Positions 45,375 through 48,590 of a DNA stretch of 50,085 nucleotides are shown in pieces. Each line of letters starts with the position of its first letter. Position 1 is the first letter of the stretch. Origin of the DNA: Eubacteriales bacterium (GTDB lineage: Bacteria > Bacillota > Clostridia > Oscillospirales > SIG627); assembly GCA_045580105.1 (NCBI GenBank), contig JAZNNH010000036.1, forward strand, positions 1 to 50,085, given 5' to 3'. The notes under the pieces are model-generated. The model worked only from the letters and a program-made list of their open reading frames with translations. It had not been told where the DNA came from and made no database searches. The translations under genes were made by a program, and so were the position numbers.

Positions 45375-45451
45375 CGAGGCGTGGCTCAGTTTGGTAGAGC
45401 GCTGCGTTCGGGACGCAGAGGCCGCAAGTTCAAGTCTTGTCGCCTCGACCA
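45375..45451 (+). tRNA. tRNA-Pro (CGG)
   Basis: CGAGGCGTGGCTCAGTTTGGTAGAGCGCTGCGTTCGGGACGCAG...GTTCAAGTC...CTCGACCA; 77 nt. Confidence 0.97.
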
Positions 45452-45452
45452 G

Positions 45453-45484
45453 AAAAAAGCACTTGCGAAAGCAAGTGCTTTTTT
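45453..45484 (+). terminator. Intrinsic terminator after tRNA-Pro (a related copy at 45727-45758)
   Basis: AAAAAAGCACTTGC-gaaa-GCAAGTGCTTTTTT. Confidence 0.85.
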
Positions 45485-45720
45485 CAACGATGCGTTCCCT
45501 ACGGAACATGATTCGCACTTCGTGCGTGATGTTTGCCTTCGGCAAGTGATGCACGCCTTCGGCACATGTTGGAACGCATTGCATCACTGCGAGCAGGGCG
45601 AGCAACATCACGTTTGCGTGAGCAAATGCATCACGCAAGGCGTAGCCTTGCGCTTCACTAAAAAGTACGAGAGTTCAAATTCATACGCAAAAACGCCCAT
45701 AATATCTTTTTGTAGCCCAT
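45485..45720. repeat. Multi-hairpin palindromic repeat element, copy 1 (GATG/CATC type)
   Basis: Four YGAT(G) motifs and four C(A/T)TCAC motifs, mostly separated by small hairpins; conserved ~65 bp tail repeated at 48236-48293. Confidence 0.75.
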
Positions 45721-45723
45721 TGA

Positions 45724-45910
45724 CAGAAAAAAGCACCTTGCTATGCAAGGTGCTTTTTCAATGATATAAATTTCTAACAGAATTTTGATATGTCCTTTGT
45801 AACACAATATATCTTCGGTTTGATACGTCGCCTCGCAACAAGAAAAAGGAATTTGTATCATATCGTACCGAACGACGAGTATATCGCCAAATTCCAAAAA
45901 CGACAGTTTC
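45724..45910. repeat. Degenerate copy 2 of the element (GATA/TATC type)
   Basis: Same terminator + CAAYGAT head as 45450-45491; TGATA x3, TATCG x2; partial tail AAAAACGACAGTT. Confidence 0.55.
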
Positions 45911-45920
45911 TGTCAAGTTA

Positions 45921-46646
45921 CTAATTCCAATTATCTTCCATATATTTTCGAGGAGCTATTTTCATTATATGCTTAAATCTTCTTGAAAAATATACGTAAT
46001 CTGTATATCCGCATTTTTCTGCAATATCAGTCAAAGACAACGTTTTTTTATATGTTTCTATCAAGTAACATGCATGGTTTATTCTTACCTGGGTTAAAAA
46101 TTCTATTGGCGTTTTTCCTGTTATTTTTTTAAACTGAGTCCTGATGTAATCAACAGCATAACCGCTTTTTTTAAGTAACTTATGGAGATTAATATTGCAG
46201 TCGCAAAAATCGTCGCTTATATTTTCTATAATCCTTTTTGTTGCCGAAAAAACCTCATCTTCCATTTTAATATTTTGAACCAGAAAATGAGCGAAAGCAT
46301 TGATTAACGAGGATACGTATTTGTTGTCGGAATGTCTGTTAGCATAAATCATTTTCGCTAATAGCATGCCCTCATTTATCGGATTATCGAAAACTACAGT
46401 CAATGTATTTAGAAAAAAGAGATGATTAAACTCACCATTTATGTAGATTCGTTCAATAACATTACTCGACTTCGTACTATAATGTGACGTTCCCGGCGGA
46501 ACAATAACGATTATTCCGGGATATACTTTAATTTCTTTTTCTGCAGTGTGCAAAATACCTTCACCTTTAGTATAAACAATAATTTCATAATTTTTATGTT
46601 TATGAGAAGGGGTTTCTTCGTTTATAAGGTCAATTAGAAAACTCAT
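45921..46646 (-). CDS. AraC family transcriptional regulator (cupin + HTH)
   Basis: HKH..YEI cupin, PPGTSH, FKKITGKTP, IAEKCGYTDYVYFSRRFK. Confidence 0.92.
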   Translation of the reverse strand: MSFLIDLINEETPSHKHKNYEIIVYTKGEGILHTAEKEIKVYPGIIVIVPPGTSHYSTKSSNVIERIYINGEFNHLFFLNTLTVVFDNPINEGMLLAKMIYANRHSDNKYVSSLINAFAHFLVQNIKMEDEVFSATKRIIENISDDFCDCNINLHKLLKKSGYAVDYIRTQFKKITGKTPIEFLTQVRINHACYLIETYKKTLSLTDIAEKCGYTDYVYFSRRFKHIMKIAPRKYMEDNWN

Positions 46647-46768
46647 AAAATCACCAACGTTATTATATTAAAAATCTATGTTTTGTGCAAGTACTTTCAT
46701 GAAAAAACATAGTAATTTTTAATATGGTGTGGTATATTTTGTTTGAAAAATTTATGTTATAGGGGCTC

Positions 46769-48130
46769 ATGATGAACATAAGAAACATTGATATGCTATC
46801 GGGGTCAATAGTCAAAGGATTAATTTTGCTAGCAGTACCAATTATGATAATGAATGTTTCACAATCTTTGTTTGGTATTATTGATATGATGGTGCTACAA
46901 TATTTTTCCGATGACAGAGCCGTGGGCGCCGTGGGTGCGTGTGGAACGTTAATGACGTTATGCACCAGTTTGCTCATAGGAATATCTACAGGGGCGAATG
47001 TTGTTATAGCAAAAAGAATAGGCTCTAAAAACAGCGAAAGTGCTAATAACGCAGGTATGACTGCAATTTTATTCTCAATCATTAGTGGAATAGTGCTAAT
47101 GATTATCGGTATAACATTTGCCAAAACTTTTTTAGAAATGACAAATTGTCCGAAAAGCTTGCTCGCTTATGCTACAAAGTATTTTAAACTTTACTTTTAC
47201 GGCATCCCCATATTAATGTTCTACAAATTTGGTGCCGCGATACTTCGAGCAATAGGAGACACAAAAACCCCGATGTATGCACTGATATTGGGAGGAATAA
47301 TCAAAGTTTTTTTCACGCTTTTATTTGTTGCCGTATTTGATATATATGTTGAAGGGGTTGCCATTGCAACTATTATTTCAAACGCTGTTGCGAGTGGCTG
47401 GATTCTTCTTACTATATTAAAGGGTCAGAACGTTATTAATATAAATCTTAAACAAATTAAATTAGATACCGGCGAATTAAAAGAGATGCTGTTTATAGGT
47501 GTTCCGGCCGGAATACAAAATGCATTATATTCGTTAGCAAATGTAGTAATCACCACGGCTGTGAACGGTTTCGGTGCCGATGCTACTACAGGAATATCTA
47601 TCGCAAATCAGTTTGATGGAATACTGTATCAAATTTCATATGCTCCGTCACTTGCCGTTACTCCTTATATTGCACAGAATATTGGAGCAAGAAATATAAA
47701 AAGAGTTAAGCAAACAGTAATGCGAGCCATATTAATTACAATAGCATTTGGAGCAACGTTTGGTTCGCTTTTTGCAATTTTTTCAAAAGAATTGTCTATG
47801 CTTATGTCTTCAACTCCTGCAGTCATTGCATTTTCGCAACAAAAAATGATTATTATATCGAGTACATATTTTATTTGCGGCATAAACGAAGTGTTATGCG
47901 GCGCTTTAAGAGGATTAGATAAACCAATTATTCCAACCATTTCAACATTTATATGTATGTGCGTTTTAAGATTTGCATGGGTTTATTTAATTTTCCCGCT
48001 TTATCCAAATCTTACTTTCTTATATGCGATTTGGCCTATTGGGTGGATATTGTCAATTATAACATTACTCACCGTTTATGCTTTTACAATATCAAATCTG
48101 CAAAAGAAAGATTTTGAACCTGCGATTTAA
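46769..48130 (+). CDS. MATE family efflux transporter
   Basis: LAVPIM, AVGAVG, LRAIGDTKTP, VEGVAIAT, QNIGA; about 12 TMs; AT-rich. Confidence 0.93.
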   Translation: MMNIRNIDMLSGSIVKGLILLAVPIMIMNVSQSLFGIIDMMVLQYFSDDRAVGAVGACGTLMTLCTSLLIGISTGANVVIAKRIGSKNSESANNAGMTAILFSIISGIVLMIIGITFAKTFLEMTNCPKSLLAYATKYFKLYFYGIPILMFYKFGAAILRAIGDTKTPMYALILGGIIKVFFTLLFVAVFDIYVEGVAIATIISNAVASGWILLTILKGQNVININLKQIKLDTGELKEMLFIGVPAGIQNALYSLANVVITTAVNGFGADATTGISIANQFDGILYQISYAPSLAVTPYIAQNIGARNIKRVKQTVMRAILITIAFGATFGSLFAIFSKELSMLMSSTPAVIAFSQQKMIIISSTYFICGINEVLCGALRGLDKPIIPTISTFICMCVLRFAWVYLIFPLYPNLTFLYAIWPIGWILSIITLLTVYAFTISNLQKKDFEPAI

Positions 48131-48154
48131 TAACACCTGCGGGCGTGAGTGTAT

Positions 48155-48293
48155 TTATTTCATTTCACTTTGTTCGTAGCACAAAATTTCACTATGGCGA
48201 AGATAATTATTTCACATTCGTCGCAAGACGAATATTTCACTAAAAATACGACAGTTCAAATTCATACGCAAAAATATCTTTTACGTAGCCCAT
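48155..48293. repeat. Right half of copy 3 of the element (TTTCAC type)
   Basis: TTTCAC at 48163, 48187, 48210 and 48235 with intervening hairpins, followed by a tail with a 22-bp exact match to 45672-45693. Confidence 0.75.
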
Positions 48294-48346
48294 AGCCAAA
48301 AAAGAATGGGTAACTTTTGTTACCCATTCTTTTTTGTTTTGGCTAT
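48292..48346. terminator. Long inverted repeat / bidirectional terminator
   Basis: ATAGCCAAAAAAGAATGGGTAAC-tttt-GTTACCCATTCTTTTTTG...TGGCTAT. Confidence 0.7.
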
Positions 48347-48590
48347 AAAATTTGAATTTTCAGTTTCTGTCCCGAACGCAGCGCGAAAGAGCGTCTGCGT
48401 TTGGGATGGGAATGGCAAGAAAAAGCCACGGGTGGCTTTTTCGCAGTCGGTCTACCGCCGACACCCGATTGTGCCAAGCCGAACGGCGAAGGCGCAAACC
48501 CGGTGTCAAGGTGAAGGAGGCCGCTTTTTTGTGATTGATCGAGAATTGGTTTTCGATAAAAAAAGGACACCGTTTGGTGTCCTTGTTCTT

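Follow-up and report, generated by a model that had tools for sequence, protein, structure and literature searches.

What is the array of small hairpins that stands behind a tRNA-Pro gene in contig JAZNNH010000036.1 of an Eubacteriales bacterium (Oscillospirales; assembly GCA_045580105.1), and does it act as RNA or as DNA? In the window analysed here, the whole 50,085-nt stretch of this contig, a sequence-only reading had described three copies of a multi-hairpin element at 45450–48293 and had taken them for an undescribed non-coding RNA (ncRNA), or for a substrate folded as single-stranded DNA, built as a rod of stacked multi-way junctions. We find that the window copies belong to a non-coding repeat that gut Oscillospirales carry in high copy number between their genes, that the catalogued Rfam motif Gut-1 is one arm of this repeat, and that the element is a dyad of two outward-reading unit arrays. 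The reading that we prefer, to which we assign a probability of roughly 0.4, is a dyad-symmetric intergenic repeat that acts at the level of DNA and has a tie to PF05635 (Avd-like) proteins similar to that between repetitive extragenic palindromic (REP) elements and RAYT genes, by a mechanism that we infer.

Organization of the element

The layout is clearest in copy 1. The array begins 3' of the gene for tRNA-Pro(CGG) (45375–45451, plus strand; ARAGORN, and Rfam tRNA with 65.3 bits) with a bidirectional terminator hairpin, T1 (45452–45485), an inverted repeat with a 15-bp stem, an A-run and a T-run. Next, at 45486–45581 on the plus strand, come the left arm and the centre, recognized by our covariance model R1 and, below threshold, by Rfam Gut-1. 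The left words CGATG, TGATT, TGATG and TGATG start at 45488, 45509, 45527 and 45547, and each is followed by a small hairpin of 3–5 bp with a TTC loop in three cases and a CTAC loop in one. In the right arm (45582–45660, plus strand; delimited by word positions, a hairpin finder and shuffles) CATCAC occurs three times and CTTCAC once, starting at 45582, 45606, 45629 and 45653 (spacing 24/23/24 nt), with hairpins at 45613–45626 (GTGA loop) and 45635–45651 (GTA loop). A conserved module of ~60 nt recognized by direct repeats, tail 1 (45661–45725, plus strand; ..AGTTCAAATTCATACGCAAAA..ATATCTTTTTGTAGCCCATTGACA), ends the copy. Words, spacings, hairpins, heads and tails all lie where the sequence-only reading had placed them, and shuffling excludes chance: three CATCAC words at gaps of 16–19 nt are found once in the window and in 0/100 dinucleotide-preserving shuffles, and likewise 0/100 shuffles give three words of the TTTCAC run of copy 3 (48163, 48187, 48210 and 48235) at such gaps.

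Throughout the family the repeated unit is a word of 6–7 nt ending in TCA(C/T), followed by a hairpin of 4–9 bp whose loop, on that strand, is of the form C-GNA-G or C-GNNA-G. About four units per strand read outward from a central point, the centre measuring ~20 nt, and one strand therefore shows GTGATG- or GTGAAAT-type words in its left arm and their complements in its right arm. Left and right words are reverse complements of each other in every element, and at least eight word types exist: GTGAAAT, (A/G)TGAAATC, TGATAT, GTGATA, (A/G)TGATG, TGAAGT, ATATCATCA and TTCACT. Hairpin sequences are free, differing between positions and between copies, and only the word and the loop class are constant; the earlier claim that pairing is held while sequence changes is borne out for the hairpins.

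It is the loops that reveal the orientation of the unit. When 160 unique hairpins were counted, with each arm oriented by its word alone, arms with TGA words had 57 T..C loops, no G..A loop and 19 others, and arms with TCA words had 51 G..A loops, no T..C loop and 33 others. On the TCA strand, with the closing pair included, C-GAA-G (39), C-GTA-G (13), C-GCAA-G (12) and C-GCA-G (11) were the commonest, and by size there were 91 triloops and 58 tetraloops. UUCG tetraloops were considered and ruled out, the loops being triloops (C-TTC-G). Since loop polarity flips strictly with word polarity, the true unit is oriented, and the two arrays of the dyad diverge from the centre. The left arm of the TGA-word types is always turned towards the tRNA; the ATATCATCA type is inverted between terminator and tail relative to the others.

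A long-range stem, P1, joins the two ends of the left arm: the first left word and the 5' strand of its hairpin pair with the centre over ~11 bp. In copy 1 this is a run of 9 bp between 45490–45498 (ATGCGTTCC) and 45572–45580 (GGAACGCAT). Of 45 unique elements, 44 can form P1 without a mismatch over at least 8 bp; the median length is 11 bp, against 5.0 in shuffles, and the stem comes in at least nine different sequences. RNAalifold on 35 copies picks P1 as well, with changes on both sides at 9 of its 10 pairs. Apart from P1 the program called only three hairpins, because the MAFFT alignment loses the register of hairpins 2 and 4 across word types. In one body of TGATAT type (L079, 246–500) the centre is enlarged by an insert of ~75 nt, within which lies a long GC-rich hairpin.

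The proposed rod of stacked junctions is not supported by this comparison. Left and right motifs had been said to change together in complementary fashion, and the complementarity is real, because any inverted arrangement of an oriented unit yields it; it extends to all of the word types, but it does not extend to covariation rung by rung. Of the 72 word deviations in ladder register, a single one is compensated by a Watson-Crick change in its partner, and the other 71 comprise 9 G.U on the plus strand, 26 A.C and 36 other mismatches. The deviating TGATT and CTTCAC of copy 1 itself have no compensation in their ladder partners. Of 45 elements, 29 have four words in each arm and 14 have arms that differ in word number. 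Every rung within an element carries one common word, which counts against a ladder because a purely geometric helix needs none, and since P1 encloses left words 2–4, pairing them with right words would form a pseudoknot that crosses P1. What evolution preserves is the hairpins, P1, and the words as words.

Relation to Gut-1

At gathering thresholds, the Rfam scan of the window returned tRNAs only and no Gut-1 (RF01706). Below the gathering score of 50, Gut-1 aligns with the right arm of copy 3 at 44.7 bits (E 8e-07; 48157–48242, minus strand) and with the left arm of copy 1 at 27.3 bits (45485–45557, plus strand). A sister copy on contig C63 of the same genome passes the threshold on both arms, each aligned end to end, the plus-strand arm with 78.7 bits and the minus-strand arm with 54.2. 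The hallmark of Gut-1, variable hairpins joined by a fixed (G)UGAAAU linker, is present in copy 3, and copy 1 has the same layout with GTGATG. The comparison with Rfam that had been proposed therefore identifies the family through C63, with the window copies themselves remaining under the gathering score, and the family can no longer be called undescribed, since one of its arms is already on record, an outcome that the sequence-only reading had itself set as a refutation.

Gut-1 was reported as an orphan motif (Weinberg et al., 2010, Genome Biol 11:R31, PMC2864571), and that paper rates it 'RNA? Y', not cis-regulatory and 'human gut only', on 43 sequences; Rfam files it as a small RNA (sRNA). 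The other literature that we found naming Gut-1 uses it as a folding test case, and a search of the literature on Gut-1/RF01706 and on PF05635/TIGR02436/Avd-like/23S rRNA-intervening sequence proteins yielded no account of the present arrays. The likeness lies in three hairpins of free sequence linked by (G)UGAAAU and in an occurrence known from gut metagenomes only. The 77-nt model of Rfam differs in being one arm, without the inverted second arm, P1, the tail, the tRNA link or the PF05635 link; it misses the other word types, as with the GUGAUG words of copy 1; and the strand that it annotates is not the one with the stable G..A loops but its complement. A catalogued motif, orphan since 2010, is thus one arm of a larger dyad element.

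Distribution and genomic setting

R1, a covariance model of the left arm built from 31 copies with the window's own left out, recovers copy 1 over its full length (42 bits, E 7.6e-07). It finds 7 copies in the genome of the window (1.4 Mb, 80.7% complete) and 407 in 42 of 61 related genomes, with a maximum of 41 in one genome of ~1.8 Mb, so that the model search suggested by the sequence-only reading has brought out homologues in abundance. Contigs of this metagenome-assembled genome (MAG) and of its relatives often break within arrays or within the preceding tRNA clusters (the end of C62, the start of C73 and the starts of C62 and C5), and array copy numbers are for this reason lower bounds. 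The repeat is among the most abundant in many gut Oscillospirales, and it is of practical concern because arrays break metagenome assemblies at tRNA loci.

The best-scoring R1 locus of each of 28 genomes was inspected. Thirteen of these loci lie 30–45 nt behind a tRNA or transfer-messenger RNA (tmRNA) gene called by ARAGORN, and at least five more (L228, L230, L244, L246 and L252) follow a tRNA-like ..CCA end, as judged by eye. The tail comes next at five of the 28, and the remaining loci are mostly followed by a promoter and some other gene. The body stands immediately 3' of a terminator hairpin. After it comes a promoter with its gene, or else the 60-nt tail and a terminator, copies 1 and 3 being of the latter kind. 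That the family is real and gathers behind tRNA genes, as the sequence-only reading had it, is confirmed, about half of the 28 loci lying behind tRNA/tmRNA terminators, and the repeat is a landmark of tRNA and tmRNA 3' flanks. The terminators before the bodies (L016, L034, L041, L101, L146 and others) belong to a few sequence families, CGACAAGTTTCGACAGAAACTTGTCG, CCGACAAGTTTCGACTTGTCGG and GCACTTGCnnnnGCAAGTGC, which are shared across tRNA loci and genomes and are partly correlated with word type.

The tail consensus consists of TTTATGTAAGAGTTCGAATTCATACGCAAAA, ~6 variable nt and AAAATATCTTTTTTGTAGCCCATAGACA, and a terminator is always next. The tail is a module separate from the body, and in 104 unique copies conservation reaches at least 90% at most of its positions; its consensus folds with only -7.5 kcal/mol and has no stable structure. 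Of 105 tail instances parsed, 61 have a terminator and a body upstream; where no body precedes it, the tail comes after the stop codon of one of various genes on its own strand (HsdS-like, MATE-like, zinc-ribbon and others). A 15-mer of the tail (at most one mismatch) was found in 31 of the 61 related genomes, many of the one-mismatch matches being chance occurrences in coding DNA. In species-representative genomes, the true ones among the matches listed lie in Oscillospiraceae, Acutalibacteraceae, Ruminococcus and 'Clostridia bacterium' MAGs, and the hosts of the true matches among those listed are human, goat, sheep, roe deer, rabbit and chicken, in each case the gut.

Four roles for the tail were tried and rejected: as a sigma-70 promoter, the count of promoter-like sites being 9 against 12.9 expected and the hexamers seen by eye being weak; as an sRNA seed, BLAST of the window's genome giving only the three tails and no complementary site; as coding sequence, homopolymer and spacer length differences between copies breaking the frame (by eye); and as the 3' end of PF05635 cassettes, 0/29 loci having a tail within 1.5 kb downstream. 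The first part of the tail resembles a tRNA T-arm. At one locus (L250, contig C11 of genome G024), ~110 nt past the R1 match, the first part of a diverged tail, GAGGGTTCGAATCCATC, equals the T-arm of the tRNA-Tyr just upstream. Such resemblances hint that the conserved tail may have descended from a tRNA 3' fragment.

Association with PF05635 proteins

Two genes of the window's genome encode four-helix-bundle proteins of PF05635/TIGR02436 (C62, 588–935, and C5, 588–938; closest solved structure 2RLD), and both directly follow a succession of tRNA array, terminator, GTGAAAT-type body and extended -10 promoter. Genes of this family occur in 40 of the 61 relatives, with up to 10 in each. A word array was seen at all 28 assessable loci among the 29 inspected by eye in relatives, and at both loci of the window's genome. 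Hairpin arrays lie upstream of the gene at about 20 of the 28; at the rest the words form plain repeats that stand upstream of the gene and, as the complement, again downstream. Each supported clade of the PF05635 protein tree holds one word type, the words having been read on the tree by eye because automatic 5-mer labels were too noisy (23 labels for 30 rows). Across the 61 genomes, which are related and not independent, arrays and PF05635 genes are found together in 36, PF05635 genes alone in 4, arrays alone in 6 and neither in 15.

Some of these loci have features of their own. On C5 the PF05635 gene is followed by a half array of the GATG word type and then by the promoter of a RuvB_N-like AAA gene, and on C62 by a small membrane open reading frame, a further array (1204–1340) and a ceramidase-like gene. 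Word repeats free of hairpins, such as AATGCGG, TAGTTGC or GCCGTCA in n copies, accompany the PF05635 genes of L163–L167, L179 and L185. At L164 the PF05635 cassette stands between two operon-like genes in the manner of an intervening sequence, its arrays abutting, by eye, the end of the upstream gene and the ribosome-binding site of the downstream one. PF05635 genes often lie 150–600 nt from a contig start.

It is tempting to go further and to see in the arrays and the PF05635 proteins a repeat-and-protein system of a new kind, in which the proteins of each clade would recognize their own word of 6–7 nt, set between mini-hairpins of single-stranded DNA, and would multiply or keep up the arrays 3' of genes for stable RNAs. 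In this full form the proposal seems to us rather unlikely. Were it true, the orphan PF05635 family would gain its first function outside diversity-generating retroelements, and Gut-1 would turn from an 'RNA' into a DNA element.

RNA or DNA

The preferred reading, a DNA-level repeat with a REP/RAYT-like tie to PF05635 proteins, would work as follows. The hairpins would form when a strand is single-stranded, and the dyad would let one arm expose the strand with G..A loops in either direction of replication-fork passage. The words would be recognition sites of a type-matched four-helix-bundle protein of the PF05635 family, and the window copies would be gene-less orphans whose remaining role would be that of spacers flanked by terminators. 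The strict strand polarity of the units points to folded DNA, and a lead in the same direction is that C-GNA-G triloops characterize DNA mini-hairpins of high stability. Orphan copies have bidirectional terminators on both sides of the body, and gene-linked copies lie upstream of the gene's own promoter, the last word abutting the -35 element (C62, C5 and L172–L177: TTTACA-17-TATAAT); in either position the body is unlikely to be transcribed.

The competitor that fares best, itself unlikely, is one structured plus-strand ncRNA, an extended Gut-1 made by read-through from the tRNA, with a 5' domain closed by P1, a 3' hairpin array and perhaps a pseudoknot between left and right words. The covariation of the hairpins and of P1 speaks for it, as do the constant turn of the left arm of TGA-word types to the tRNA and the sRNA entry of Gut-1 in Rfam, and both strands of the window fold much more stably than shuffled sequence does (z -5.4 and -5.2). 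Yet a strong terminator (15-bp stem and T6) separates the tRNA from the body and another stands behind the tail, gene-linked copies precede the promoter of the gene, and one word type is inverted between terminator and tail. With polarity flipping at the centre, such an RNA would have U..C loops on one side of it and G..A loops on the other side, these being triloops and not UUCG tetraloops, and compensation at the level of rungs is absent (1/72). Of the two options left by the sequence-only reading, ncRNA or REP-like folded DNA, the second fits the evidence better; a single RNA strand as the functional form does not agree with a loop polarity that flips and a body orientation that varies.

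Several observations nonetheless weigh against the DNA-level reading. Hairpin and P1 covariation fits RNA equally well; G.T mismatches on the plus strand exceed A.C, 9 to 3, the excess of G.U expected of an RNA; and nearest-neighbour energies fail to separate the strands, the T..C strand being favoured in 58 of 90 arms with RNA parameters and the G..A strand in 62 of 90 with DNA parameters, by differences below 0.6 kcal. The 'RNA? Y' rating that Gut-1 received from Weinberg et al. (2010, PMC2864571) must be counted here as well. As to the protein, only 3 of the 28 top array loci have a PF05635-like gene within 1.1 kb, most arrays not being adjacent to one, and genome G024 (96% complete) has four arrays and no PF05635 match. 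The match of clade to word may be simple co-inheritance of linked DNA, and the binding of PF05635 proteins to the words is pure inference for a protein that has no known nuclease or recombinase fold.

The tRNA-Pro flank and the remaining copies

Somewhat less probable again than the ncRNA is the explanation of the element as a miniature or remnant of a site-specific integrative cassette behind tRNAs, with the words as arm sites of a recombinase, the tail or the terminator as crossover, and tandem units as repeated integration. The flank itself gives this idea some appeal. It varies among 14 same-genus genomes as a hot spot would: G005 has tRNA-Pro, a T1-like stem (GCACTTGC/GCAAGTGC) and then directly a gene, with no element; G010 and G018 have other word types with a tail; and six of the 14 have different units of ~200 nt, sometimes in tandem, that end in copies of the tRNA-Pro 3' end (T-arm and acceptor end). 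Tandem units stand behind tRNAs of at least 10 identities, the terminator is exactly duplicated within some arrays (L146 and L152), and the tail follows diverse same-strand cargo genes, which include two serine-recombinase C-termini (L070 and L106). Against it, the window's genome (80.7% complete) has no match to a serine recombinase, an HUH transposase (PF01797) or a reverse transcriptase (PF00078), and its five tyrosine-recombinase (PF00589) matches all lie away from arrays, so the association with recombinase or RAYT genes that the sequence-only reading had envisaged is not seen there. The tRNA 3' end is not repeated at the unit borders of copies 1–3, several word types would demand several recombinases in a genome of 1.4 Mb, and the free-sequence hairpins would be left unexplained.

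The window itself holds, at 48340–48545, such another tRNA-Pro-linked unit, of which 48360–48545 is the copy of the unit in relatives, without the tRNA 3' end. Its hairpin arms copy the anticodon arm of tRNA-Pro, with a 16-nt exact inverted match of 45399–45414 at 48369–48384, and it also holds an internal terminator (48423–48446) and a GACACCCGATT..CCGGTGTCAA hairpin. Against Rfam it has no match (best L20_leader, 27 bits against a gathering score of 58.7).

Between copy 1 and this unit the window continues with a second terminator hairpin, T2 (45726–45759), a diverged copy of T1 recognized as both a direct and an inverted repeat; the two are 74% identical over 42 nt, and the changes in T2 occur as pairs. 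Copy 2 (45760–~45920, plus strand; R1 and hairpin finder) is indeed a member of TGATA/TATC type, as had been claimed, but a decayed one: R1 gives it 22.8 bits (E 0.0088) against 42 for copy 1, its hairpins are weak and its tail is degenerate. The pairs of its P1 (45763–45773 with 45849–45859) are retained. It adjoins the 3' end of a gene for an AraC-family regulator (45921–46646, minus strand; Pfam HTH_18 2.9e-16, AraC_binding), cargo between copies 2 and 3, after which comes a MATE efflux gene (46769–48130, plus strand; Pfam MatE 5.5e-55).

Only 3 nt separate the end of the MATE gene from the remnant of copy 3 (48134–48240, plus strand), which keeps, of a GTGAAAT-type element, the right arm, the centre and only the final hairpin of the left arm, as indicated by Gut-1 on the minus strand and by alignment with C63. 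Its four right words, as ATTTCAC, start at 48162, 48186, 48209 and 48234, and the minus strand reads GTGAAAT. The four TTTCAC words and the tail reported for copy 3 stand, but it is not a full copy: it aligns with C63:30900–31010 and lacks the left arm that is present in the complete GTGAAAT-type element of the same genome (C63:30797–31110, 3' of tRNA-Ala). A GTGATG-type element lies in the same genome 3' of tRNA-Glu on C62, where it is cut by the contig end. Tail 3 (48241–48296, plus strand; by repeat comparison) is a short variant without ~9 nt of the variable middle and is 94% like tail 1 over 33 nt, and T3 (48297–48336), an 18-bp terminator hairpin found as an inverted repeat and by a terminator scan, closes the array. 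At L137, too, a MATE-like gene ends directly before a tail.

Two further explanations we hold to be improbable. The arms could be two sRNAs on opposite strands, convergent in the Rfam orientation or divergent on the G..A-loop strands. Each C63 arm passes the Gut-1 threshold on its own strand and loop polarity strictly tracks word polarity, as this would have it; but promoter-like sites within the body or next to it are no more frequent than chance predicts (9 found, 12.9 expected), the short centre leaves little between the arms, convergent RNAs would be without terminators of their own, and P1 reaches from the left arm into the centre. A repeat that is selfish or neutral, without function of its own, tolerated behind terminators and at most a fail-safe barrier to read-through, would suit the very high copy number, the frequent contig breaks, the location at gene ends and decayed members such as copy 2, but hairpins, P1, word identity and loop polarity are kept across the families of an order, which argues for continuing selection or a demanding copying mechanism.

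Comparison with known systems

Integrative elements of tRNA genes leave att duplications, whereas copies 1–3 have no copy of the tRNA 3' end; other tRNA-Pro units in relatives do have it. Unlike integron attC sites, the arrays have no tyrosine recombinase near them and consist of two arrays of four units and not of one palindrome, the attC core-site consensus not having been scanned for. Avd and the 23S rRNA intervening-sequence proteins (PF05635, TIGR02436; PDB 2RLD) are of the same family as the array neighbour and are encoded inside or beside stable-RNA genes, flanked by inverted repeats. The setting differs from that of a diversity-generating retroelement in that the window's genome has no PF00078 match beside its Avd-like genes and no pair of template and variable repeats.

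Iterons, parC and the heptad arrays of omega repressors are recognized as double-stranded DNA, and their spacers form no hairpins. The present arrays share with them a short word repeated about two helical turns apart, direct and inverted blocks upstream of the promoter of a small protein, and a word type matched to the protein clade; they differ by their hairpin-forming spacers, and PF05635 is not a known DNA-binding fold.

A further parallel is that of REP, bacterial interspersed mosaic elements (BIMEs) and REPINs, abundant hairpin repeats that lie between genes, at their ends, both directly repeated and inverted, and in which the RAYT gene is always flanked by its own repeat type. The differences are in the parts: the arrays combine free hairpin sequences with a fixed word of 6–7 nt, in contrast to the conserved palindrome with a GTAG head of REP, and the linked protein is a four-helix bundle of 115 aa and not an HUH nuclease, with no PF01797 match in the window's genome (80.7% complete). 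The plan is much the same: a high-copy intergenic hairpin repeat, single and in inverted pairs (7 copies in the window's genome, 407 in 42 of the 61 relatives), a dedicated gene family flanked by its own repeat type, most repeats being orphans, and the idea of action on single-stranded DNA. Should the link between protein and repeat hold, each of two unexplained families would account for the other, with the PF05635 genes standing to these arrays much as RAYT genes stand to REP elements.

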